Source of the DNA: an uncultured Gammaproteobacteria bacterium
GTDB lineage: Bacteria; Pseudomonadota; Gammaproteobacteria; UBA4575
Reading direction: 5' to 3'
Length of the DNA: 64,000 nt
NCBI GenBank assembly: GCA_963976865.1
Contig: CAXBLY010000001.1
Coordinates: 671,224 to 735,223, forward strand
A program made the translations under genes and the position numbers. Below are positions 11,957 to 22,678 of the stretch, in pieces (the stretch's first letter is position 1; every line of letters begins with the position of its first letter). The notes under the pieces are model-generated. The model made no database searches. It saw nothing but the letters and a program-made list of their open reading frames with translations, and was not told the DNA's origin.

Positions 11957-12063
11957 TTTCTATCAGCGAATAAATCTAAATTCCTGATTTAAAACGAATA
12001 TGAATACAAGGATCAGCGATTTCAATATCGCGCCAAGGATGGATCTTAATTCACTTCAGTATT

Positions 12064-12140
<77 letters not shown>

Positions 12141-12440
12141 TACATGCGGCTGGCTATTAGTCGCAAATTAATTATCGCGAAGCGCTGCTGAATAAATAGT
12201 TACAGATACTTTTATTCAGGTTTACAGTGGATAGACAATTATTCACTAAAGTTTATTCATAAATTAGTGCAAGTGAGATTTGGATAGCCACCAACACCAA
12301 GAATTTTATGACTTGGTTTGTCTGGCCATTTCAAGTGCATCTTCTATCTCTATACCCGGATATATACTAGTACTTGCCAATTTGTATACCCGAGCAAGGG
12401 CTGAATAGCGCATAAATAGTTAGTACGCTTAAAAAACAAT

Positions 12441-13115
12441 TTAACGAGGCGGATCAATATTGTTATCAATGGATGCATTAACGCGAAACCAGCCTGCCAC
12501 AGAATATCTGTCTCTGATTGCAGGCAGGACTTCATGTGGAAACTCTTCGCTTAGAAATACCACAATGGTTCCGTATAGTGGGACAACTTTTAGTCCTTCC
12601 CGATCCTGGTCATCAGCATAAAGTACCAGTTCCCCACCCTCAGAATTCCCCCAGGCAGGGTTTAAATAAGTGACAACAGACAGAATGCGATTTGCTTCCC
12701 CCCGAAAAGCGTCGTAGTGCCGTTTGTAATAAGCACCAGGAGAATAGTGAGCAAAGTGGCTTTCAAATGAAAAGAGCCCAAGAAAAAGCTGTTGATTCAA
12801 AAAGCGCTGTAACCTGGATGTCCAACCTATCCACCGGCTACCCGCATCTGAGTCATCAGTGATCCAGCAAATTTCATCGGTTCTTACAAAATCTGTTTTT
12901 ACAAAATTTGCACCACGCCCTATGCCTGCATCAGTGTATTTGCTTGCAGTGAATTCTTGCTGATAAGCATATAAAGCACTGGATATATCATCTGGTAACG
13001 CCGCATGCCGAATGCTGTAGCCTTGCTTTTCAATATCATCAGCAATTAGCCCAAATAGCGTTTCGTCTACTGTGTTATCGCCGCCAGTATTGGGGAAAAG
13101 TTTTAATGCCAGCAA
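12441..13115 (-). CDS. 2OG-Fe(II) oxygenase, prolyl-hydroxylase-like
   Basis: RTDEICW, YKRHYDAF, GGEL, HEVLPA, RYSVAGWF; start uncertain. Confidence 0.88.
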   Translation of the reverse strand: MLALKLFPNTGGDNTVDETLFGLIADDIEKQGYSIRHAALPDDISSALYAYQQEFTASKYTDAGIGRGANFVKTDFVRTDEICWITDDSDAGSRWIGWTSRLQRFLNQQLFLGLFSFESHFAHYSPGAYYKRHYDAFRGEANRILSVVTYLNPAWGNSEGGELVLYADDQDREGLKVVPLYGTIVVFLSEEFPHEVLPAIRDRYSVAGWFRVNASIDNNIDPPR

Positions 13116-13430
13116 TTTTATTACCTGCCCATTATAAATGTCATGCTCAGAAATAATCTGTGTATTGTGGTTAATTCCGACGGACGAGTACTATTGGCGC
13201 AAGTTCTGAGTTGCACTAATAGCTAAAATGTATGATTGCTTATATTCAATGCGTTAGCATTGAAAGAAAAAATGGCATCAAATGCATTCGCAAATAAACG
13301 ACCGTAAAGACCGACGTTATCAAACTTGGGTTAATAAATATAATAAAATTTTCATTTAAATAAACACTATAGATAGTGCATGGTACTGAAATATAGAAAT
13401 GGGTATCGTGAGCCAATTATTTGAAATTTC

Positions 13431-13461
13431 AATGTCTGCTTTCGGCTCAATAGCGGTCATT
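13431..13461 (-). repeat. Palindromic cassette repeat R1
   Basis: + strand AATGTCTGCTTTCGGCTCAATAGCGGTCATT. Confidence 0.9.
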
Positions 13462-13467
13462 CATGGT

Positions 13468-13710
13468 TTAATTTCTGATTGAGTATACAGTGAAAAGAAC
13501 TCCTGCCCAGAACAGGAAACCCAACAGCATCACCCAGTCACAAGCTAAATATTTTTGGTCATTATCAATATAGACTAATTTCCCGAATTTCCACTTTTCA
13601 TGTCTAAGTTTAAAGAACTGAGCATCAGCTTTTAATATTCCAAAAGTCAGAATTGGAGTTAATATAAATCCTGTGGAATAGAAAAATAAATAAATTAGTC
13701 CTTCTGGCAT
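13468..13710 (-). CDS. Hypothetical small membrane protein (cassette 1)
   Basis: 80 aa, two hydrophobic segments; fills the R1-R2 interval. Confidence 0.7.
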   Translation of the reverse strand: MPEGLIYLFFYSTGFILTPILTFGILKADAQFFKLRHEKWKFGKLVYIDNDQKYLACDWVMLLGFLFWAGVLFTVYSIRN

Positions 13711-13721
13711 TACTTACTTCT

Positions 13722-13752
13722 TTAGTCAGTTATCGGCGCAATAGCGGTCATT
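13722..13752 (-). repeat. Palindromic cassette repeat R2
   Basis: TTAGTCAGTTATCGGCGCAATAGCGGTCATT; contains the stop codon of cassette 2. Confidence 0.88.
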
Positions 13753-14173
13753 TGCTTTTCTTTGGAAGGCCGAGGAAGTCTCTGAAAATATAAATCATCC
13801 AGGCTGTACATCCCAATGGAAGATATATCAAGAGAATAGTCTCCAGCTGATATAGATTTGCCCATACAACTGGTACTAATAAGTTGTAGCCAGCAATTAT
13901 TACAGATGTAATACCCATAACAAGAAACAATAATGTCAATTTTTTATTTAGTAGCAGCTTTGGTTGACCTAACGTAATTGAAATCAATGAAACAATTCCT
14001 ATGATGCCCGCTGCACCTAGTAGAATGATGTAAAAAGCAGTGCTGTAAAAATCGAGTTCCATTAATATCTCATCAAATAACAGTATTGAAAGAAGTATCG
14101 ACCAAAAATAAATTGGAACTGTGAAACAAAATGAAACAATAAACCAAATTAATACCTTAAAAGATAACTTCAT
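13748..14173 (-). CDS. Hypothetical four-TM membrane protein (cassette 2)
   Basis: Hydrophobic ORF filling R2-R3; an alternative in-frame ATG lies at 14212 inside R3. Confidence 0.7.
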   Translation of the reverse strand: MKLSFKVLIWFIVSFCFTVPIYFWSILLSILLFDEILMELDFYSTAFYIILLGAAGIIGIVSLISITLGQPKLLLNKKLTLLFLVMGITSVIIAGYNLLVPVVWANLYQLETILLIYLPLGCTAWMIYIFRDFLGLPKKSK

Positions 14174-14182
14174 CTTCTGATT

Positions 14183-14213
14183 TTTGTCTGCTTCCGGCTC
14201 AAAAGCGGTCATA
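14183..14213 (-). repeat. Palindromic cassette repeat R3
   Basis: TTTGTCTGCTTCCGGCTCAAAAGCGGTCATA. Confidence 0.9.
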
Positions 14214-14215
14214 AT

Positions 14216-14542
14216 CTAATTTAGAATCAATGTTACAACGTTAATAATAACTAGCAAAATAATTAATGGTATCGAGTACCATATAATCTTTGTCTGAAAC
14301 AACCAGAGATTTCTTACAAGCTTAGCCTGTCTTCTAGTTGTAGAATCGTTGAGTTGATTATATCGCTCAAGTAAATAAAAATCGTGCCAATAAAAAATAG
14401 AGATTGGAAGAGGATGTTTCTCATTTTCCCAATACTCTTTATCGCTTTCGCGAATTCTTCTATATACGTTCAAATGCAATATGTGACTAATCAATAAATA
14501 TAAAAAAAGAATTGCAAATATAGATTTACCGATCAATTCCAT
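14216..14542 (-). CDS. Hypothetical membrane protein (cassette 3)
   Basis: 108 aa with N- and C-terminal TM segments; fills R3-R4. Confidence 0.7.
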   Translation of the reverse strand: MELIGKSIFAILFLYLLISHILHLNVYRRIRESDKEYWENEKHPLPISIFYWHDFYLLERYNQLNDSTTRRQAKLVRNLWLFQTKIIWYSIPLIILLVIINVVTLILN

Positions 14543-14575
14543 AAATTATTATATATTGGGGCTGGTTGATGATTA

Positions 14576-14606
14576 ATTGTCCGCTTTCGGCGCAAAAGCG
14601 GTCATT
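14576..14606 (-). repeat. Palindromic cassette repeat R4
   Basis: ATTGTCCGCTTTCGGCGCAAAAGCGGTCATT; contains the stop codon of cassette 4. Confidence 0.9.
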
Positions 14607-14976
14607 CATTCTTCTCAGTAATAAGAATCTTTCCATTTGAATCTTTAACTTCAAGAAACTTAAGTTTCCAATTCTCACTGCCATAATCATTTACAACTAC
14701 TGCTTCAAAAGTCATAAAGATGGGGCGTAAGTTTTTATTATTTTCTGTAACCACAGATTGAACTTTATGTGTGCATTCGCCCAAGTAGGTAACCTGTGTG
14801 TCTTTGGATGAATATCCAGCAACTAATCCTCCCATGTGTGGTAACTTATCTTGACGACCTGCAAAATATAGTTCAGCAATAAGATAAGCTTCTTCTTGAT
14901 TTTCACATCGTATATTTGGATCGCTACAATTTGTTAATAGCACCACACAAACAACAGCAATAGCTAATCTATTCAT
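14602..14976 (-). CDS. Hypothetical putative lipoprotein (cassette 4)
   Basis: MNRLAIAVVCVVLLTNC lipobox-like N-terminus; both ends touch repeats. Confidence 0.7.
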   Translation of the reverse strand: MNRLAIAVVCVVLLTNCSDPNIRCENQEEAYLIAELYFAGRQDKLPHMGGLVAGYSSKDTQVTYLGECTHKVQSVVTENNKNLRPIFMTFEAVVVNDYGSENWKLKFLEVKDSNGKILITEKNE

Positions 14977-15005
14977 TGTCTCATTTCGGCTCAAAAGCGG
15001 TCATT
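14975..15005 (-). repeat. Palindromic cassette repeat R5
   Basis: ATTGTCTCATTTCGGCTCAAAAGCGGTCATT. Confidence 0.88.
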
Positions 15006-15016
15006 CGTGTATACAT

Positions 15017-15409
15017 CTAACCTCCACGAGTTGTTACCAATAACAATATACATATAACTACAACTAGCAGTATGAATGTGTTTCCAAATTTCCTTCTCTC
15101 TTGAGATTCTTCAGAAGTTATTTTCGACATTGGCAATGAAGCCAGCTCCCAAAGTGAGCCAATACCCCAAAATAAAGGAATCAATAATAGATATTCAAAT
15201 ACATTAGAAATATAAAATATATAAATACTGGCAGCGTAGCCTGCTATTTTAAAAACCGTAGGCCATGCTGTTTGGAATCCAAAACGATATTTCGAGTGTA
15301 CGTAGCTCAAATTACCGCATAATCTGCACTTAGATGGTGTGTCTGATCCTGACCAAATTTTTGACCAGAATCCAATACCTTTGCAATTACAATATGGGCA
15401 ATTAAACAT
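15017..15409 (-). CDS. Hypothetical membrane protein with N-terminal CxxC...CxxC (cassette 5)
   Basis: CPYC and CRLC motifs followed by three TM segments. Confidence 0.72.
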   Translation of the reverse strand: MFNCPYCNCKGIGFWSKIWSGSDTPSKCRLCGNLSYVHSKYRFGFQTAWPTVFKIAGYAASIYIFYISNVFEYLLLIPLFWGIGSLWELASLPMSKITSEESQERRKFGNTFILLVVVICILLLVTTRGG

Positions 15410-15414
15410 TAATG

Positions 15415-15444
15415 CATGACTGCTTTCGGCTCATAGCGGTCATC
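15415..15444 (-). repeat. Palindromic cassette repeat R6
   Basis: CATGACTGCTTTCGGCTCATAGCGGTCATC. Confidence 0.9.
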
Positions 15445-15453
15445 TCGTAATTG

Positions 15454-16029
15454 TTAAACAAGAAGTAATTCATTTGTAACAACCCACGCATCAATTACAT
15501 TCTCGGTCTTATCCCACTCTCTTTCATTTCCTATGCCATATATTGGGAGTCTGTTAGTTTCACTTGGTAATTCCAACAAATGTTTTACACCAGCATTGAA
15601 AATCTCAAATGCACTATAATTTGTATCTATTTCAACATTAACTATTGTGCCTCCAACTAGCAATTCGCTAACACCATCCCACTCCATATCTCCGCCATAA
15701 TTGCTAGACAAAGGGTTTTTGAAAGCATAATAGTCTGGATGTGCTTCCACCCAATGATCATCTAATAGCAACCATTGGCATGCACCCCAAAGTGTTAAAA
15801 TTAAATTTTCTTTCCCATATTTTTTTGTCTCATTTAGTTCGATGCCAAAGAAGCCTGGGCCACCCATTCCATAGCTTCCATGATGGCCGCACCATGAACC
15901 AATTTCACGACACATAATTCTCTCTAAACCAACTTCTCGAATTGTTTTTGGTGGCATACCACTTACTTTTTCTTTGCTCTCAATAATATTGCCCATGAAT
16001 ATTTTCGGCTTATTTATGTGGAATAGCAT
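15454..16029 (-). CDS. Hypothetical soluble protein (cassette 6)
   Basis: 191-aa ORF with GSYGMGGPGFFG; start may be 15996. Confidence 0.7.
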   Translation of the reverse strand: MLFHINKPKIFMGNIIESKEKVSGMPPKTIREVGLERIMCREIGSWCGHHGSYGMGGPGFFGIELNETKKYGKENLILTLWGACQWLLLDDHWVEAHPDYYAFKNPLSSNYGGDMEWDGVSELLVGGTIVNVEIDTNYSAFEIFNAGVKHLLELPSETNRLPIYGIGNEREWDKTENVIDAWVVTNELLLV

Positions 16030-16071
16030 ATTATTAAATTAGTAAATTATCGAGTCCACTAGAAATTTTGA

Positions 16072-16101
16072 AATGTCTGCTTAGGGTCGAAAGCAGTCAT
16101 T
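16072..16101 (+). repeat. Palindromic cassette repeat R7
   Basis: AATGTCTGCTTAGGGTCGAAAGCAGTCATT; loop orientation opposite to R1-R6. Confidence 0.88.
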
Positions 16102-16153
16102 AATCACTATACAATATTAGCATCCTCAAATATACTAATCTAGAATCGTTCTG

Positions 16154-16183
16154 AGTTTCTGCTTTCGACCCTAAGCAGACAAT
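16154..16183 (-). repeat. Palindromic cassette repeat R8 (inverted twin of R7)
   Basis: 16159-16181 is the exact reverse complement of 16074-16096 (23 bp). Confidence 0.88.
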
Positions 16184-16246
16184 CTATTATTTTATAAATT
16201 CTTATTATTTCATATGATGCTCATGTACAATTTGATAAGGTAATTA

Positions 16247-17146
16247 TTGATTAACCATAACTTCAGAAAGCCAATGCTTATTAGAATTATATTTAGAACG
16301 CTTGTATTGATGATTATCACAACACATGCAGCCAGCTCAGCAGAAATTTCTTTTGATCGTTTTGTGGGACTTAGCAACATAGCCGTATCTGATCAGACTG
16401 TCTCGTGTGTAACTGTTAGTGGTGGAAGACCAGCAGGAACATGTGGCGCAGGCGAGACAATTCTTGCGAGTCAAGCGCCAGGCTTGGGATTCTTGTTTCC
16501 TCGTTTTAATACTAGTTTGGGCACACTCAATCAAGTAAATCTTACTTATAATCTAAATACTGGTGGTGTTTGGATAGGCAGACCTGAAGACTCTTTCTTA
16601 AGTTTATCAACTGACTTTAATTTCAGTAGTGTTGTAGGGTTGTATTCAGATCATTTCGGTGATCAAAGTAATGTTGATGATAGACTTCCAACTTGGAATG
16701 GGGTAGATCGATCTTTGTTACGAGACATTGCTGCATCAGGTCTAGACACTATAGATGGAGGTTCTACATCTATGGAGTTTAATTCAAGAATTGATTCGCG
16801 AGCAGAGGGTTGGTCAATTTCTTTAAATGGTACAAGAGATTTTGCTGCAAGTGATGCTTTTTTGTTTGTAGAAGGCGAAACTCCTAACGATTTACGTGAG
16901 AACGTGCAAATATTGCTTCTCTACCAACTTTTTGCATCGCTCGATGGTAGAGGAGAGGATTGTAATGCATTGATTGCCGTGGCCCCATGTGGTGCAACTA
17001 ACAGGATTACTTCCCTGACTAGCGCAAGGATCACTTTATCTTACGATTATGATCCGCCCACTGTAGTACCAATTCCAGCTACAGCCTGGTTACTTGGTTC
17101 TGCACTTGGTTTTATTGGATTATTTAAAAGGAAAAAGAGTTTATAG
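16247..17146 (+). CDS. Secreted VPLPA-CTERM (PEP-CTERM-like) protein
   Basis: Signal peptide; C-terminal VPIPATAWLLGSAL, TM segment, KRKK; start probably 16274. Confidence 0.82.
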   Translation: MINHNFRKPMLIRIIFRTLVLMIITTHAASSAEISFDRFVGLSNIAVSDQTVSCVTVSGGRPAGTCGAGETILASQAPGLGFLFPRFNTSLGTLNQVNLTYNLNTGGVWIGRPEDSFLSLSTDFNFSSVVGLYSDHFGDQSNVDDRLPTWNGVDRSLLRDIAASGLDTIDGGSTSMEFNSRIDSRAEGWSISLNGTRDFAASDAFLFVEGETPNDLRENVQILLLYQLFASLDGRGEDCNALIAVAPCGATNRITSLTSARITLSYDYDPPTVVPIPATAWLLGSALGFIGLFKRKKSL

Positions 17147-17157
17147 TTTAATTTATA

Positions 17158-17188
17158 TTTGTCCGCTTTTGAGCCGATAGCGGTCATT
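17158..17188 (+). repeat. Palindromic cassette repeat R9
   Basis: TTTGTCCGCTTTTGAGCCGATAGCGGTCATT, 11 bp after the stop codon. Confidence 0.9.
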
Positions 17189-17435
17189 CTCGAATTGTTT
17201 ACATAACGCTGGAGTTACTTTGTAAACGCCTCAGATGGTTAATATCTATTTTAAGAAAATGGAATAAGTAACTGAAAAAATTCCAGTCGTTTAATAATGA
17301 GCTATAATTAATTGTACATAACATTCATTACGTGTGAGTATGGTTAAAATTTTACAGTGCAAATAGTTATCGCATTCTAAATCATAAGTTATGAATGCCT
17401 TCGTTTAGTAAGGCTCAACAGCTGGGAATAAAATA

Positions 17436-18089
17436 ATGAAGTATTGTAAAGCAGTTGCACTAGCAGGATTCATTGCGGTTCTTTTGGTCAGCAGTGTGCA
17501 GGCGGCTATAATAACAACCTACACAGACAAGGCTGCTTTCTTGGCTGATACGGGTGCGGCGAGCGTCTCTGGGACATTGCCGAACTTAGGAGGTTTGGGT
17601 GTGGGAAACCCGGTCATATTAGGTGGGGTAACATTAAATCTTGCAGGTAATAGCACCCAATTTTTTGTAGATAATCGTACTCCAGTAAATCCAGGCTTTG
17701 ATATAGCAATAAGTGGAGACGAAAATTTTGATGCTGTTTTAGATGTTCCTACATATTCTTTTGGATTTGATGTCGTAGAGCCAGATGCAGTTTGTTTTCC
17801 AGGTGTTGGTTGCTTTAATCAGTCGCAGTTTACTGTCACGGTGGGATCGGACAGTGAAATTTTTACGCTCATGGGACTCAGTTCTGATTTATCTACTCCG
17901 ATTCTTGATTTTGTTGGAATAGTTTCTGATACGCCATTTAGTTTCGTTGAAGTCAGAGAAACCATTACAAGTGGTAGTACCAACGAATATTTTGGTGAAT
18001 TTTATGCAGCTCCTGTACCTATACCTGCGTCTATATGGTTATTTGGATCAGCAATTGGATTGCTGGGGTGGATAAAGCGTAAAGTCTGA
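17436..18089 (+). CDS. Secreted VPLPA-CTERM (PEP-CTERM-like) protein
   Basis: Signal peptide ending VQA; C-terminal PVPIPASIWLFGSAIGLLGWIKRKV. Confidence 0.85.
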   Translation: MKYCKAVALAGFIAVLLVSSVQAAIITTYTDKAAFLADTGAASVSGTLPNLGGLGVGNPVILGGVTLNLAGNSTQFFVDNRTPVNPGFDIAISGDENFDAVLDVPTYSFGFDVVEPDAVCFPGVGCFNQSQFTVTVGSDSEIFTLMGLSSDLSTPILDFVGIVSDTPFSFVEVRETITSGSTNEYFGEFYAAPVPIPASIWLFGSAIGLLGWIKRKV

Positions 18090-18112
18090 GTCTATTAATA
18101 ATTTTTTGCAAT

Positions 18113-18136
18113 AAACCCAGTACATGCTGGTTTTTT
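18113..18136 (+). terminator. Probable intrinsic terminator
   Basis: CCAGTA-CA-TGCTGG followed by TTTTTT. Confidence 0.45.
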
Positions 18137-18145
18137 ATGAGCGTT

Positions 18146-18176
18146 AATGACCGCTATTGAATCGAAAGCTGACGTT
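18146..18176 (+). repeat. Palindromic cassette repeat R10
   Basis: AATGACCGCTATTGAATCGAAAGCTGACGTT. Confidence 0.85.
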
Positions 18177-18194
18177 AGTTGTAGTCAGGTTTTA

Positions 18195-18224
18195 AACGAC
18201 AGTTTTCGACTCATAGCCGTCATA
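18195..18224 (-). repeat. Palindromic cassette repeat R11 (degenerate)
   Basis: AACGACAGTTTTCGACTCATAGCCGTCATA. Confidence 0.72.
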
Positions 18225-18264
18225 GAAGAATCAGTATTACGCCTTTTTGTTTAGTAGCAGCGAT

Positions 18265-20031
18265 TTAATTTCGTCTTTTTGATTTTTTCGGATTATCCGA
18301 GTTCACGAGGAAAACATTATCCTGTATTTCTCTGCCAATACGTGTGTTGCGACGAATCACTTGTGCAAGAGACGTACGCTCAATTGAACGTATTTCACGA
18401 GATGACATGCTGTTTTCATACCAGAAGCGGTCACCATCACGCAGTCGTTCAAATTGATCTTTCAAAATAGCAAGGAACACCTCGCCTACTAGCGCGTCTT
18501 TTACTTTATCTTCTGCCAGCCCACCTATCCAAAGATCAACATCATTAACAGTAGAATAAGCCTCGGCTAGTTTGGCCTGGGTATCCGGGTCTGAAGAAAT
18601 CTCTGAAAAACTGGCAGCAGGCGGTAAGCCTAATGCGATGCGTGTATCATTATAGCTAGCTAAACCATGGTCACGTCCACGTTGAATATTAAGTGAAGCT
18701 AAATCAAAGCCCCCGTTACCAGGTAAGCCAAATAAAAAGTTTCGAACATCATCAATAATAAGTACATCAAGATCCTGGCAGGCCTGTTTTGCCAACCCTC
18801 TTAATATAGGTTCAATGCCACCTTCATCGATAATGCTGCCGGGCGAGAAAAATGCGTCTCGTAACGAGAGATTTCCAAATGCAATTTCATTGCCTCTTCT
18901 ATCTAGTCGCAGTAATTGTGGAGAAAGCAGGCTATGCCCTAATCGGTAAGCGGCAGTCGAGAATTCATTGCGAATGCTTGCATCCACATCAGGGTTATAA
19001 CCGCTGTATTCACTTAATGCATTTGGCCCCAGAAGTACTGGAATAAATTCTTGATAGGTAATAACCTGCATAAGTGCGGCTACTGTATTGCGTGCACGTT
19101 GATAAATTTCATCACCACTTAAGCTGGATTGACGTCTAGCGATCCTCGTTGCCAGCCGGTTATGTTCACGTACAAATAAGGTATGCATGGTTGTGAGTCC
19201 AACTTGCTCATTGGCCCTGACATCGCCGGCTATAAATAAAGTGTCGCTCGGACCACCAGCATTACTTAAACCTGCGGTATTAAAAGGTAGCAGATTGCCC
19301 TCACTGGTTTTTAATTTTCCAGTACCATCTAATGTTCTTAATGCTAAGGCACGTTCGTCATCCGATCCGTATACATTGGATGCATCAATCCAGCCGGTGA
19401 TTTCATTGATTTGTTGCCGTGGATTATCTACATCGATTCCTGTCAATTCATCAAAGATGGACCGGTTGAATGGTAAAACGACATCAGCGTTATTATTAGG
19501 ATCAAAATATTCGTCACCAGCAGGAATGGCAATATTAGCTGGTTCCGGTATTGGTACGCCTTCTGTTAAATCAATATCATGATCTAGAAACTGGCCCCAC
19601 TGCCATAGAAAGTCACTGGCGGCATTTGGCGTTTGTGTTGAAACTGCTTGAGCTAATACCGTATTACTAACAACGCGTGGGTTAGGTCGTGTTGCACCCG
19701 CCAACGCTGATATGCCGTCACTATAAGCATTCGGTGCAATGCGAACCAGTTGTGTATGGGGTGTATTCATATCTGGAGAGGAAATATTATTATTTGCTCC
19801 ATCAATTGATCGAATAAACACGTTGGTGGTGTTTTGTTTGTTGCGGCGATTATGATCACGTTCGATTCGTCGTACTGGGGAAGCATTCCGGTCAAGTACG
19901 GTTTGATCGGCTTCTTTTAATAATTCGCTGCCAGAAAGCCTGTGTCGTTGCGCTCCAATAACAATTGTCGATACAAGTACAGTAGATGCGACTATAACAA
20001 TAAAAATATTTTTATTTTTCATGGCAGACAC
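18265..20031 (-). CDS. Secreted heme peroxidase, peroxidase-cyclooxygenase (animal-type) superfamily
   Basis: WGQFLDHD, AGDVRANE, AYRLGHS, NIQRGRDHG, LRDGDRFWYE; signal peptide. Confidence 0.92.
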   Translation of the reverse strand: MSAMKNKNIFIVIVASTVLVSTIVIGAQRHRLSGSELLKEADQTVLDRNASPVRRIERDHNRRNKQNTTNVFIRSIDGANNNISSPDMNTPHTQLVRIAPNAYSDGISALAGATRPNPRVVSNTVLAQAVSTQTPNAASDFLWQWGQFLDHDIDLTEGVPIPEPANIAIPAGDEYFDPNNNADVVLPFNRSIFDELTGIDVDNPRQQINEITGWIDASNVYGSDDERALALRTLDGTGKLKTSEGNLLPFNTAGLSNAGGPSDTLFIAGDVRANEQVGLTTMHTLFVREHNRLATRIARRQSSLSGDEIYQRARNTVAALMQVITYQEFIPVLLGPNALSEYSGYNPDVDASIRNEFSTAAYRLGHSLLSPQLLRLDRRGNEIAFGNLSLRDAFFSPGSIIDEGGIEPILRGLAKQACQDLDVLIIDDVRNFLFGLPGNGGFDLASLNIQRGRDHGLASYNDTRIALGLPPAASFSEISSDPDTQAKLAEAYSTVNDVDLWIGGLAEDKVKDALVGEVFLAILKDQFERLRDGDRFWYENSMSSREIRSIERTSLAQVIRRNTRIGREIQDNVFLVNSDNPKKSKRRN

Positions 20032-20216
20032 TTAAATTCTCCAAATGAGCTTGTGTTATTTCATATCCAGCTCCTTTTAATATGAGTTACTTGAATACTG
20101 TGGTGATTCAGGGTCAGCGGTAGTTTTAGCCTGATGAATGGTATGGAGATACAGCTAATCAATTGAATTGATTAGAATTTATCTTTTGTGAACTTCATAA
20201 CGATTAAATCAAACTG

Positions 20217-20247
20217 TATGACCGCTATTGGGCCGAAAGTGTGCATT
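20217..20247 (+). repeat. Palindromic cassette repeat R12
   Basis: TATGACCGCTATTGGGCCGAAAGTGTGCATT. Confidence 0.8.
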
Positions 20248-20512
20248 GAATAATTTCATAGGTCGGATTCATACCTGGTTTATCGATACTCGATAAAAGC
20301 TCAGGAATAAAATTATTTCGACTCTGTTCCTGGAAGAAATTGTGTAAGTTAAAAAAACAGCATGGAAAGAATACTTTTAAATTACATTAAAACTGGAATT
20401 ATTGTTAATGGGTTCTGTAGAGTTAAATTTAATAAAAGATATAGCGATGAATTTTTACTTTTAGAAATAATGTGGATAACATTTATGTAATAGATACCAG
20501 GGGAGAAAGGTC

Positions 20513-20731
20513 ATGAATCTAGCAGCAGCAACAATCATCAGTTGGCATCTATTTGTTCAATCGTATAGCGACTTCAATCCTTTGACGTATGGGATAATGA
20601 GTATATCTGGTATACGTGACCATGATATCTGTATGGAGCTTGGCATGGAGTGGCAGAAGAACTGGACTAACGATGAAATGACGGCAACATTTGAATGCAA
20701 GCCAGAATATAGAGATGCCAAAGGCGCATAA
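20513..20731 (+). CDS. Small hypothetical protein
   Basis: 72 aa preceded by a GGGGAGAAAGG RBS; two Cys; followed by the half repeat AAGCAGTCATT (20757-20767). Confidence 0.5.
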   Translation: MNLAAATIISWHLFVQSYSDFNPLTYGIMSISGIRDHDICMELGMEWQKNWTNDEMTATFECKPEYRDAKGA

Positions 20732-20882
20732 AAATAATATTGGATAAATTTGCAGTAAGCAGTCATTCAGTGTTGGTCAAGTGACTAAGTAGAAGGCGTC
20801 AGCTTGTGTCAGGCTATTTATCGTGAATATAAGTCAGGTATGATAGCGGCTCATATTAAAATATCTCAAACCGTGTTTAATA

Positions 20883-21578
20883 ATGAGTGTAAATACAAAT
20901 AATCGACTTGCAGTAATTGCGGGTGCAGGTCAGGGGTTAGGGAAAAGTATCGCAATCATGTTGGCAAAGGCGGGTTATCACGTTATTGGGCTGAACCGTT
21001 CAGAAGTTTCATGTGAAGACAGTAATGTCACTATGATGCAGCTGGATGTCGCATCGGGTCATGATGTAGCGAATACCCTCTCAAGTATTATTGAACAATT
21101 TGGTGCGCCGGAAGTGTTAATCCATAACCCGGCAGAATTACTGATAAAGCCATTTCAGCAAACCTCGCCCGAGGACTTTGAACTTGCCTGGAAGTCGATG
21201 GTACTAAGCGCAGTAAATATATTTCATACAGTATTACCGGCAATGGTTGATCAGGGGAAAGGAACAATTCTGGTATCCGGCGCTACGGCCAGTTTGCGTG
21301 CTGGTGCGAATTTCTCTGCATTTGCATCCGCCAAGTTTGCGCTGCGTGGGCTGACTCAATCTGTGGCACGTGAATATCAAAAGCAGGGCATTCATATAGC
21401 GCATGTTGTACTGGATGGCATACTTGATACGCCAAATAGCCGTACCCTGCACTCGCTTGATCCGGATGACATGATGTCTACTCATGACGTCGCAGAAGCA
21501 TATCTTCAACTCATCCAGCAGAAACCGTCTGCATGGTCACATGAGATTGACCTGAGGCCCAAAAACGAAATATTTTAA
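20883..21578 (+). CDS. Short-chain dehydrogenase/reductase
   Basis: AGAGQGLG, SGATASLR, FASAKFALRGL, HVVLDG. Confidence 0.9.
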   Translation: MSVNTNNRLAVIAGAGQGLGKSIAIMLAKAGYHVIGLNRSEVSCEDSNVTMMQLDVASGHDVANTLSSIIEQFGAPEVLIHNPAELLIKPFQQTSPEDFELAWKSMVLSAVNIFHTVLPAMVDQGKGTILVSGATASLRAGANFSAFASAKFALRGLTQSVAREYQKQGIHIAHVVLDGILDTPNSRTLHSLDPDDMMSTHDVAEAYLQLIQQKPSAWSHEIDLRPKNEIF

Positions 21579-22678
21579 TGCAGACAGAGGTATTGATTAT
21601 TGGTGGAGGGCTAAGTGGTCTGCACACAGCCTATGAATGTCACAAACGTGGCATCAAGTATTTATTGCTTGAGGCAAGAGACCGTCTTGGCGGAAGAGTG
21701 CTTTCCCTGAATAAGGATGAACAGTCATATGACTCAAGGCAGGCCGGTGTTGACCTGGGGCCGAGCTGGTTCTGGCCGCAACAGCAACGAATAAATTCTT
21801 TGATATCTGAGCTGGATCTGAAAAATGATGTGTTTTTTCAGAACTGCAATGGTGATGCATTGTATGAAGATAATCAGGGGAACATTCAGCGTGGGATTGA
21901 TGGAATATCCATGGCGGGTGCGTATCGGTTAAGAGGCGGAATACGTCAGTTAACGAATGCGTTAAGCAGTCAGCTATCACGTGAAACGCTTTTTACAAAT
22001 GCAGTGGTGAAGAGTGTTAATTATGCCGATGGTGAAATAACAACAATGTATGAAACGAATAACAGTATTAAACACATATTAAGCAAGCAGGTCGTAATGG
22101 CATTGCCTCCGAGAGTCGCATTGCAACAAATTAATTTTGAGCCTGCTTTTACTGAAAGCCGCACACATGAGCTTAACCAAATAGCAACGTGGATGGCAGG
22201 ACATGCGAAAGTAGTGTGTATTTACAAACTGCGGTTCTGGCAAGACAACGGTTATTCAGGTGATGTAATTAGTCACCGCGGGCCTTTGCAGGAAATACAT
22301 GATGCGTCTTCAGAGGATGGCGGACTGAATGCATTATTCGGTTTCGTCGGTGTGCCGCCTGTTCATAGAAAACACAGGCAAGATGAGTTAAAGAAAATGG
22401 CAGTGGCTCAATTAGCCAGGATATTTGGCGATCAAGCATTAGAGCCTCTTGCAGTGTATTTTCAGGACTGGTCGACTGAACCGTGTACATCCACACAGTT
22501 AGATCAGGAGATTCAACGATTCCATCCGGCGAATAACATCGGCAGCGTGACAGAGCAATCCTGGGACAATCGTTTGATATGGTCAGGCACAGAAGCAGCC
22601 AACTATAGCTTACAGAATAACGGTTTACTTGAAGGTGCGCTGGAAGCAAGCATGAATGCTGTGTCAATGCTGAAATGA
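21578..22678 (+). CDS. Flavin monoamine oxidase family protein
   Basis: IIGGGLSGL, EARDRLGGR, DLGPSWFWP, GLLEGALE. Confidence 0.88.
   Translation: MQTEVLIIGGGLSGLHTAYECHKRGIKYLLLEARDRLGGRVLSLNKDEQSYDSRQAGVDLGPSWFWPQQQRINSLISELDLKNDVFFQNCNGDALYEDNQGNIQRGIDGISMAGAYRLRGGIRQLTNALSSQLSRETLFTNAVVKSVNYADGEITTMYETNNSIKHILSKQVVMALPPRVALQQINFEPAFTESRTHELNQIATWMAGHAKVVCIYKLRFWQDNGYSGDVISHRGPLQEIHDASSEDGGLNALFGFVGVPPVHRKHRQDELKKMAVAQLARIFGDQALEPLAVYFQDWSTEPCTSTQLDQEIQRFHPANNIGSVTEQSWDNRLIWSGTEAANYSLQNNGLLEGALEASMNAVSMLK

Follow-up and report, generated by a model that had tools for sequence, protein, structure and literature searches.

Gene-cassette arrays on a 29-bp, lox/dif-like site in an uncultured marine gammaproteobacterium: a candidate non-integron system

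What kind of system strings single, unrelated genes between copies of a short repeat that is not the attC site of an integron? The question is raised by a stretch of 64,000 nucleotides from an uncultured Gammaproteobacteria bacterium of the lineage UBA4575 (GenBank assembly GCA_963976865.1, contig CAXBLY010000001.1, forward-strand positions 671,224 to 735,223; G000:C1:671224-735223 in our numbering of genomes and contigs), which we refer to as the window. The assembly is 2.57 Mb long, comprises 13 contigs and is 97.8% complete. An initial annotation, made from the letters of the window, described at positions 13,431 to 20,247 an integron-like array built on a ~30-bp palindromic repeat, and proposed a gene-capture and shuffling platform served by a recombinase encoded in trans. 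Our analysis points, with fair confidence, to a non-integron cassette system that uses double-stranded sites of the lox/dif type and is now probably inert in this genome. To a similar degree, we favor the view that a small (208 amino acids, aa) tyrosine recombinase, consisting of a catalytic domain only, uses the repeat as its core recombination site.

Anatomy, distribution and rearrangement of the 29-bp site

All 12 repeat copies counted by the initial annotation are present in the window (Table 1). A profile seeded on these copies and iterated twice over the whole genome with nhmmer recovered 11 of the 12 at E<0.01 (window 13426-20254); the twelfth, at 16154, is the inverted partner of the copy at 16072. 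A strict consensus allowing up to 3 mismatches gave 5 matches in the window and 0 in each of 100 shuffles, and the consensus scan and the profile bear out the earlier statement that the 64 kb hold no further copy. A repeat search found both direct and inverted repeat families among the window copies. Each interval contains one open reading frame (ORF) or a short spacer, as first described.

For the sequence logo and the covariation analysis, we used 230 unique oriented copies from the window genome and its relatives. The site is 29 bp long, with a conserved arm (AATGACCGCTWTTGM) abutting the stop codon of a gene, a GCCG center and a looser inverted arm (AAAGCAGACAT). The gene-proximal arm and center (AATGACCGCTWTTGMGCCG) carry 1.0-1.9 bits per position, and the distal arm 0.2-1.1 bits. 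At all 13 pairs of mirrored positions, the paired fraction (Watson-Crick or G-T) equals the shuffled expectation, and for the 11 outer pairs mutual information does not leave the range of the shuffles; it does so for the innermost two only because a second class of sites, described below, has a different center. Since mirrored positions do not covary, we see no selection for base pairing and do not regard the site as a selected hairpin. The reported palindrome, with its imperfect inverted arms, is better read as two related, unequal, putatively protein-binding arms of ~11-13 bp around a short asymmetric center, the layout of a double-stranded core site of the lox/FRT/dif type.

The asymmetric center gives each site an orientation, and this agrees with the adjacent ORF in 35 of the 47 copies in the genome. 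In these 35 cases, the sense side has an open frame of at least 60 codons that ends between -45 and +7 nt relative to the conserved arm; the antisense side has one in 4/47. Seven of the 35 ORFs stop at a TGA inside the conserved arm. The repeating unit is one ORF plus one site, arranged head to tail as in integron-type cassettes.

The repeat is not confined to the window locus. The 47 copies form ~10 clusters, five of them at contig ends, and 44 have another copy within 3 kb (random expectation: mean 4.7, maximum 16 in 1000 placements). A 23-base degenerate pattern with up to 2 mismatches matched 10 of 15 genus-mates and no genome among 25 from other genera, with the most matches in G012 (39), G006 (25), G011 (13) and G002 (10); a reversed control pattern gave zero matches in the same genomes. 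When 185,579 species, each represented by one genome, were scanned for exact matches, 61 stretches were returned, mostly in uncultured "Gammaproteobacteria bacterium" metagenome-assembled genomes (MAGs), along with single matches in unrelated taxa; from the information content of the pattern, ~9 matches are expected by chance. In metagenomes, the scan found at least 80 loci, and 38 of the 80 loci listed carry two or more sites by the profile. Sequencing runs that contain the window stretch are labeled marine or aquatic metagenomes. One variable base of the site, base M, is biased by species (C in 37/39 copies in G012 and 22/25 in G006, A in 13/13 in G011 and 9/10 in G002) and mixed in the window genome (14 A, 14 C, 1 G). 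In sedentary integrons, attC sites are species-specific, a pattern that the bias in base M resembles.

Cassettes have changed neighbors within these sites, in line with the initial annotation. Three single-gene cassettes are duplicated between arrays of the genome at 98.9-99.5% identity (contigs C1/C2, 428 bp, 99.3%; C2/C4, 272 bp, 98.9%; C2/C11, 394 bp, 99.5%). For each pair, homology begins within one site and ends within the next, and the neighbors differ. Variants of the distal arm travel together with the downstream ORF, and variants of the conserved arm and of base M with the upstream ORF. Bounded by the nearest diagnostic polymorphisms in the arms, the five informative junction intervals (21/22 to 31/32, 25/26 to 29/30, 25/26 to 34/35, 17/18 to 33/34 and 15/16 to 30/31 in model numbering) all include positions 26-29, the GCCG center. 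Judging from these natural duplicates, strand exchange would take place inside the central region, with the arms staying with their flanks.

Of 11 distinct duplicated segments in the genome and its relatives (minimum 150 bp and 88% identity), 9 have homology that ends in a site on at least one side. A 4-kb multi-gene module, 93% identical in two organisms, has a site at both ends. A 1.1-kb cassette shared by contig C11 and G012 (92.5% identity) extends in both from a cassette-type site to a site of the second class, and the sequences diverge beyond the cassette-type site. A block of five genes also has sites at both borders in two species (G000 C5:2103-5437 and G006 L068 10496-13992), and multi-gene units may therefore be site-bounded as well; by ORF reading, the block encodes a LysR-type regulator, an NAD(P)H-oxidoreductase-like protein and three others.

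For strain comparison, we used assembled Logan contigs of four sequencing runs (X1-X4), of which X1-X3 are three samples from two studies. A related strain in X4, represented by pieces 90-99% identical to the window, has cassettes 2 and 3 and the peroxidase side of the array, and coverage is zero over 15170-15903 and 16271-18105. Contigs of this strain part from the window at 13734, 14185/14606 and 18198, all of them sites: those of 6.2 and 7.3 kb do so at 14606 and 18198, and a shorter contig does so at 13734; one contig links 18198 to 16099 on opposite strands. Gene content thus does vary at repeat boundaries among relatives. Metagenome contigs matching the arrays are 99-100% identical and collinear, and gave no new cassette orders for the species.

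The small tyrosine recombinase of relatives and its remnant in the window

In the complete genome G006, a 208-aa ORF terminates two arrays; one of its copies lies at G006:C1:1363166-1363789. Its only Pfam family is PF00589, and it comprises the catalytic domain only. Counting five intact copies in the genus and two on metagenome contigs, this recombinase lies less than 100 bp from a site in six of the seven. Four of the five genus copies are 25-82 bp from a site: in G006, the stop codons of both copies are 25-28 bp from an inverted site, and G012 has one copy with a site 37 bp downstream and another with a site ~80 bp upstream. The fifth, in G002, has its nearest site 1.5 kb away. On both metagenome contigs, an 87.5% identical gene lies 28 bp from a site. 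Four of 15 genus-mates, all of them site-bearing, have the recombinase (in G015 as a fragment that contains a stop codon); in 40 genomes from ten other genera of the family we found none. The idea of a recombinase acting in trans needs amending, in that the gene adjoins the arrays in relatives and only its decayed 3' end persists in the window, ~1 kb to the left of the array.

Six residues (R59, K87, H156, R159, H182 and Y191) are invariant in 41 aligned members of the recombinase family. Against the NCBIfam invertase models NF007370 and NF007371, the protein scores 16-30 bits (cut-offs 221-222), against Xer models 35-78 bits (cut-offs 220-335) and against the IntI model TIGR02249 20-24 bits (cut-off 265). 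With scores so far below the curated cut-offs, we place the recombinase outside the Xer, Fim and IntI families. The solved folds nearest to its AlphaFold model are XerA, XerH and Cre, which are 60-140 residues longer, and the N-terminal core-binding domain therefore seems to be cut to two helices. By residue conservation and genomic position, this enzyme would be the one that catalyzes recombination at the 29-bp site. The accessible part of one paper (PMC8138268) does not name this recombinase subgroup.

The family is very large and closely conserved, with at least 8000 candidates, all at E 1e-10 or better, and members of ~70% identity occur in Burkholderiales and Methylophilales MAGs. Members occur on 445 plasmid records, among them pMOL30 and plasmids of Pseudomonas aeruginosa, and in 14 of 400 sampled genomes of the class (12 of 398 without the unpublished G196 and G362). 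In other Gammaproteobacteria, at most one or two degenerate sites, single or inverted, stand beside the gene. In uncultured Sphingomonadaceae, inverted copies of the 29-bp site lie on either side of each of two decayed recombinase genes (L023 and L054), of which one is frameshifted and the other interrupted by a 1.3-kb insertion, and further sites are nearby (3-4 per 8 kb); the pairing of site and enzyme therefore crosses proteobacterial classes. Three plasmids carry single-gene homologues of ~68% identity: pMOL30 (L082), P. aeruginosa pPA942-IMP45 (L083) and Methylomonas pLM6 (L084). The latter two have one degenerate site-like sequence each, 76-127 bp behind the recombinase stop, and in pMOL30 we could read by eye only a loose site-like stretch upstream of the gene.

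In the window, the last ~45 codons of the recombinase gene lie between tRNA-Phe and a 2-oxoglutarate (2OG)-Fe(II) oxygenase gene. A tblastn search matched residues 184-208 (60% identity over 25 aa, E 2.6e-4), and upstream of these residues the frame, read by eye, is shifted. Where the main part of the recombinase gene would be expected lies the oxygenase gene, present in only 2 of 15 genus-mates (E<1e-100). Behind the remnant, the sequence matches that following an intact recombinase gene in G012 (locus L075), where the order is MutY, YggX, tRNA-Phe, recombinase, site, cassettes and center. From this matching DNA and the shared gene order, we conclude that the window locus is the orthologue of a recombinase-bearing array; the cassettes of the two loci are entirely different.

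With only a stub of the recombinase left, it is doubtful that this genome still captures genes, and the arrays are probably frozen unless an unassembled copy exists. Such a copy could sit in assembly gaps, since five arrays reach contig ends. Of the gene-capture and shuffling platform first proposed, the re-sorting at sites stands, as relatives and duplicates attest; present-day capture here is questionable, and capture of new genes as such is inferred.

Center module, cassette contents and the window array

The larger arrays of the genome and its relatives consist of two cassette wings transcribed away from a center. At the center are two inverted sites with arms like those of cassette sites and with the centers GGGTCG / CGACCC, as against GCCG. 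The two are 81 bp apart, start to start, in all eight complete pairs, and five genomes share the module at 77-97% identity. Within its spacer is a conserved block, ATATTAG...TCAAATATACT.AT.TAGAAT, which contains TTAGCA-N18-TAGAAT reading rightwards, and this conserved 81-bp module heads both wings. It may carry an outward promoter; a scan for promoter-like sequences over 13300-20500 gave 24 matches against a shuffled mean of 27.2, and as this is not above shuffles, we do not count a center promoter as established.

Center-type sites also occur singly within arrays. Tyrosine recombinases need matching overlap sequences, and cassette-type and center-type sites should therefore recombine only within their own class, which would insulate the two from one another. 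A more speculative extension, to which we give only a modest chance, is that the inverted center-type pair would flip a 52-bp promoter-bearing segment and so switch the expressed wing, while cassette-type sites would serve single-gene excision and insertion. One minimal recombinase would then work on two classes of sites, and the plasmid-borne enzyme family might have seeded the arrays. We saw no sign of flipping of the center: its element points away from the recombinase side in all four arrays in which that side is known.

An insertion sequence (IS) of the IS30 family, encoding a 389-aa HTH_38 + rve transposase (G000 C5:140122-141306, L186), interrupts a center-type site at its dyad, between ...GCTTTCGAC and ACCCTTAGCGGACAT, with an apparent 2-bp duplication. 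The same junction between IS and site is found at the end of contig C4 (~225170) and the start of C8 (~56). This IS appears to be a site-hunting element, like those that target attC or pdif.

The left wing of the window array has six minus-strand ORFs of 80, ~141-154, 108, ~124-130, 130 and 191 aa, with leaders of ~6-43 bp from site to next start codon, and a GC content of 34.9% against 41.7% across the window, which agrees with the co-oriented, AT-rich ORFs of the initial annotation. The right side has plus-strand ORFs of 299 and 217 aa, followed by a minus-strand ORF of 588 aa, and convergent sites 10 and 11 are separated by a 20-bp gap. Of nine window ORFs scanned, eight have no Pfam family and the ninth is an animal heme peroxidase. 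The 299-aa product scores 26.8 bits with NF033208 (cut-off 23.8) and below the cut-off with TIGR03370; like the 217-aa product, it looks secreted, both having tails of the form VPIPA...W-L-x-G-S-A...KRK. The 588-aa peroxidase has an N-terminal hydrophobic segment and forms a site-bounded unit, an unusual passenger for a bacterial cassette array. An Rfam search of 12000-22000 with E up to 1 returned only the tRNA.

Table 1 Features of the window array and its left flank (window coordinates)
Feature	Position	Strand	Remarks
tRNA-Phe (GAA)	12065..12140	+	Rfam; left landmark of the locus, conserved by synteny
Decayed recombinase, 3' remnant	12309..12420 (about)	-	Matches residues ~165-208 of the 208-aa gene; frameshift; conserved GH reads GY
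2OG-Fe(II) oxygenase gene	12441..13115	-	PF13640, E 5.6e-23; no site after the gene
Site 1, cassette type	13431..13461	-	At stop of 80-aa ORF
Cassette ORF, 80 aa	13468..13710	-	No Pfam family
Site 2, cassette type	13722..13752	-	Next ORF stops at a TGA within the conserved arm
Cassette ORF, ~141 aa, membrane-like	13748..14173	-	No Pfam family
Site 3, cassette type	14183..14213	-	Consensus and profile
Cassette ORF, 108 aa	14216..14542	-	No Pfam family
Site 4, cassette type	14576..14606	-	Consensus and profile
Cassette ORF, ~124-130 aa, lipoprotein-like	14602..14976	-	Second copy on contig C2, 99.3% identical, other neighbors
Site 5, cassette type	14975..15005	-	Unusual gene-distal arm moves together with the duplicated cassette
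Cassette ORF, 130 aa	15017..15409	-	No Pfam family
Site 6, cassette type, 1 base shorter	15415..15444	-	Profile
Cassette ORF, 191 aa	15454..16029	-	No Pfam or NCBIfam family
Center module, gene-free	16072..16183	.	Inverted variant sites 16072-16101 and 16154-16183; promoter-like match 16117-16146
Right-wing cassette ORF, 299 aa	16247..17146	+	Choice-of-anchor E domain; VPLPA-CTERM-like tail
Site 9, cassette type	17158..17188	+	Profile
Right-wing cassette ORF, 217 aa	17436..18089	+	VPLPA-CTERM-like tail, below cut-off
Site 10	18146..18176	+	Profile
Site 11	18195..18225	-	Convergent with site 10; 3' of peroxidase ORF; breakpoint in related strain
Animal heme peroxidase family ORF, 588 aa	18265..20031	-	PF03098, E 2e-160; opposite to the rest of the right wing
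Site 12, right array boundary	20217..20247	+	Profile; no ORF ends there

Cassette contents are also varied in relatives. In a set of 52 of their cassette proteins, 24 families had matches, each from one or two proteins, including SnoaL-like, glyoxalase, DUF1428, ASCH, SET and GAF-GGDEF, with no widely shared family. The 157 site-linked ORFs, some of them double-counted through overlapping loci, fall into 118 families with 86 singletons. None of 61 scanned cassette proteins belongs to an immunity-named Pfam family.

At the right border of the window array, a 72-aa ORF (20513-20731, +) also borders the end of an array in G006 (L067 6031-6249, -). At its opposite end, this G006 array lies against ychF, and so does the array with which contig C8 begins (C8:1-3708 vs L067 13164-15586). 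The arrays seem to be breakpoints of chromosome rearrangement between species.

Competing explanations and comparison with known systems

In the mechanism that we propose, a cassette would start at the center of a site, take in the looser arm of that site, a short leader and one ORF, and extend to the next site's conserved arm and center. Simple tyrosine recombinases excise or integrate DNA at direct repeats and invert it between inverted repeats. Because the sites within a wing are direct repeats, recombination between them would excise a circle with one site, and in the reverse reaction such a circle would be inserted at any site, as in Cre/lox and with an integron-like outcome. Two wings would diverge from the 81-bp module of inverted sites with its different center, and in this genome decay of the recombinase to a stub beside tRNA-Phe would have left the arrays frozen.

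Several observations weigh against this mechanism. The assembly holds a remnant of the recombinase and no intact copy that we could find, and seven site-bearing genomes of the genus, two of them complete, have no recombinase. Outside the genus, we found no arrays near family members in stretches of 3.6-8.6 kb (3 plasmid loci and 21 loci from the class sample). The fold model is middling (pLDDT, the predicted local distance difference test, 72.6) and weak after residue 155. The junction mapping depends on where polymorphisms happen to lie, and an invariant center would also hide any exchange. Cassette order is the same in every site-spanning contig of X1-X3. Of 14 contig joints, 13 have at least one end at a site, the other joining 18438 to 19580 inside the peroxidase gene; in 11 of them all the sides measure 23-32 letters. 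For joints at sites, side lengths of 23-39 letters are the rule; such joints may stem from other arrays that share the repeat, so we do not count them as excision, and the contigs show no recombination product.

The recombinase or its remnant often adjoins a tRNA gene, as island integrases do (the window, L075 and L015), and its primary role could therefore be island integration. On that reading, the sites are real and the arrays are relics of serial mini-island integration near tRNA genes or other hot spots, with an integrase or resolvase that shuffles nothing. The multi-gene site-bounded units (the LysR block of 3.2 kb in G000 C5 and G006 L068, and the 4-kb module), the stable order in three samples and the occurrence of the family as single genes on the 445 plasmid records all fit. 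However, single-gene units with leaders of 6-43 bp dominate, the same single-gene cassette is found in different arrays with different neighbors on both sides, and only two of the five intact genus copies (L075 and L015) are adjacent to a tRNA gene. We consider this history unlikely. It is less probable again, and clearly so, that the repeat is a hairpin of the repetitive extragenic palindromic (REP) or terminator type, or a REPIN moved by a REP-associated tyrosine transposase (RAYT), behind the genes of AT-rich islands. An imperfect palindrome just behind stop codons is what such a hairpin would look like, but covariation is absent from the mirrored positions, and one of the arms is far less conserved. 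A scan of 13300-20500 for terminator-like sequences gave 8 matches, themselves not clearly above shuffles (mean 5.0, sd 2.0), and the repeat is not among the 8. Rfam has no match to it, its copies are clustered, and the site is tied to a tyrosine recombinase across classes. We rejected a REP/REPIN identity, with PF01797 (Y1/RAYT) giving 0 matches in the 97.8% complete genome and 44/47 copies clustered; the scatter over the genome that would have spoken against the initial annotation was not seen. Clustered regularly interspaced short palindromic repeats (CRISPR) were likewise rejected, the spacings being 82-2183 bp start to start and the intervals filled with ORFs.

A recombinase that the host already has could also use the sites, either IntI on atypical attC sites or XerC/XerD on dif-like modules. 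The genome encodes all three: of its three PF00589 proteins, two are Xer-sized and one is an integron integrase (C3:224477-225463, 328 aa, with SAM-like and catalytic domains and 487 bits to TIGR02249 against a cut-off of 265). The latter belongs to a chromosomal integron (G000 C3:220900-225463, L187), in which intI diverges from at least five small cassettes, one encoding an XRE/HigA-like helix-turn-helix protein and the other four, when scanned, having no Pfam family. The elements between these cassettes are imperfect inverted repeats of ~60-75 bp that start ...TAACAA and end GTTA..., which we take to be canonical attC sites. In general, attC sites are ~55-140 bp long, have R''/L''...L'/R' boxes with conserved AAC/GTT and are recombined as a folded strand. 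The 29-bp repeat has no conserved GTT/AAC and no covariation and does not resemble the genome's own attC, and we rejected an attC identity; since a normal integron with its own attC shares the genome, the repeat is not the attC of that integron. No integron integrase adjoins the arrays, IntI being on a separate contig with its own cassettes. IntI scores above the cut-off in 2 of 16 genomes of the genus (G000 and G010), the site occurs in 11 of 16, and IntI was not found in the repeat-rich G012, G006, G002 and G011. A single dif-like sequence, found with a dif consensus, lies at C6:60841, 9 kb from the small C6 array; it is unlike the repeat, and we rejected a dif or pdif-type identity. These separate systems and the ORF-filled intervals uphold the initial annotation in setting the repeat apart from attC, dif and CRISPR.

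Two facts favor a host enzyme all the same: Xer-dependent module arrays exist in Acinetobacter, and an 11-base stretch identical to the conserved arm (AATGACCGCTA / TGACCGCTATT) is found in L187 at the ends of the 301-aa and 134-aa cassettes, at the stop of one and inside the attC of the other. The match may be a coincidence or may record an exchange between the integron and the 29-bp site arrays. Xer genes, however, are also found in five site-free genomes of the genus, and we judge use by a host recombinase to be improbable, marginally more so than the hairpin. We give least credence to homologous or microhomology exchange between the 29-bp repeats with no dedicated enzyme. There is sequence identity at every cassette border and no intact recombinase in the genome, as this would have it, but 29 bp of identity fall short of what efficient RecA-dependent exchange requires, the five junction intervals all coincide over one set of 4 bases despite differences between copies in the longest identical run, and the strict polarity, the two center classes and the adjacent recombinase are left unexplained.

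On the cassette reading, the arrays matter beyond this genome. Integrons are the textbook device for stockpiling and reshuffling single genes. In an uncultured marine gammaproteobacterial genus, the same outcome is apparently reached with a different, much smaller tyrosine recombinase and a plain 29-bp double-stranded site. If so, cassette-style gene storage evolved more than once, searches for cassette arrays need not be tied to attC models, and a compact pair of recombinase and site with two apparently insulated site classes could be a useful tool. The arrays also offer a way into the hundreds of orphan genes that account for much of this lineage's accessory genome. A literature search, with subscription papers and supplements outside its scope, found no description of the site or system, and words of the site sequence retrieved only unrelated primer text.

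The arrays resemble integrons in their head-to-tail single-ORF units, which look promoterless, have a site 3' of each ORF and comprise two half-sites each. They also share diverse and mostly unannotated contents (SnoaL-like, glyoxalase and domains of unknown function), species-biased sites and arrays that outlive their recombinase, as do the integrase-less attC clusters known as CALINs. They differ in the enzyme, which here has 208 aa and lacks the N-terminal SAM-like domain and the IntI-specific insertion; in the site, which is 29 bp long, has no R/L boxes, shows no selection for folding and places the crossover at the center; and in the layout, which involves ~10 loci in each genome and wings on both sides of an 81-bp module. 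A true integron with a separate attC coexists in the same genome.

To our knowledge, only a few other recombinase-linked array systems exist, and the nearest precedents outside integrons are rAID-1 clusters and pdif modules, which have other recombinases, sites and hosts. The Bacteroidales recombinase-associated acquired interbacterial defense clusters (rAID-1) are described as having, at the 5' end, an XerD-like recombinase related to BF9343_RS08045 (>44% identity), followed by co-directional immunity genes of low GC content (bioRxiv 10.1101/471110). That description, of an XerD-family recombinase and type VI secretion immunity genes in Bacteroidales, sets them apart from the present arrays, which have a smaller, different enzyme, belong to Gammaproteobacteria, are bidirectional and, among 61 scanned proteins, gave no match to an immunity-named Pfam family. 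The pdif modules of Acinetobacter are small modules shuffled between replicons by XerC/XerD at double-stranded sites of the 28-bp class, and insertion sequences target these sites (PMC10132070). Short double-stranded sites that bound modules and are targeted by IS elements (here of the IS30 family) are thus common to both; pdif sites are like chromosomal dif and use the housekeeping XerC/D, whereas the present site is unlike dif, has a dedicated, linked recombinase and occupies chromosomal loci. In pdif modules, which are found on plasmids, the flanking sites are oppositely oriented, whereas the sites within a wing here are direct repeats.

Cre/loxP, XerH/difH and FimB/FimE share with the 29-bp site the inverted arms around a short asymmetric center in which exchange occurs. 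The FimB/FimE invertases are also of the same size as the 208-aa recombinase, although its scores with their models are far below the cut-off, and we know of none of these systems that builds gene-cassette arrays. By this comparison, the arrays are integron-like in outcome and Cre/lox- or Xer/dif-like in presumed chemistry.

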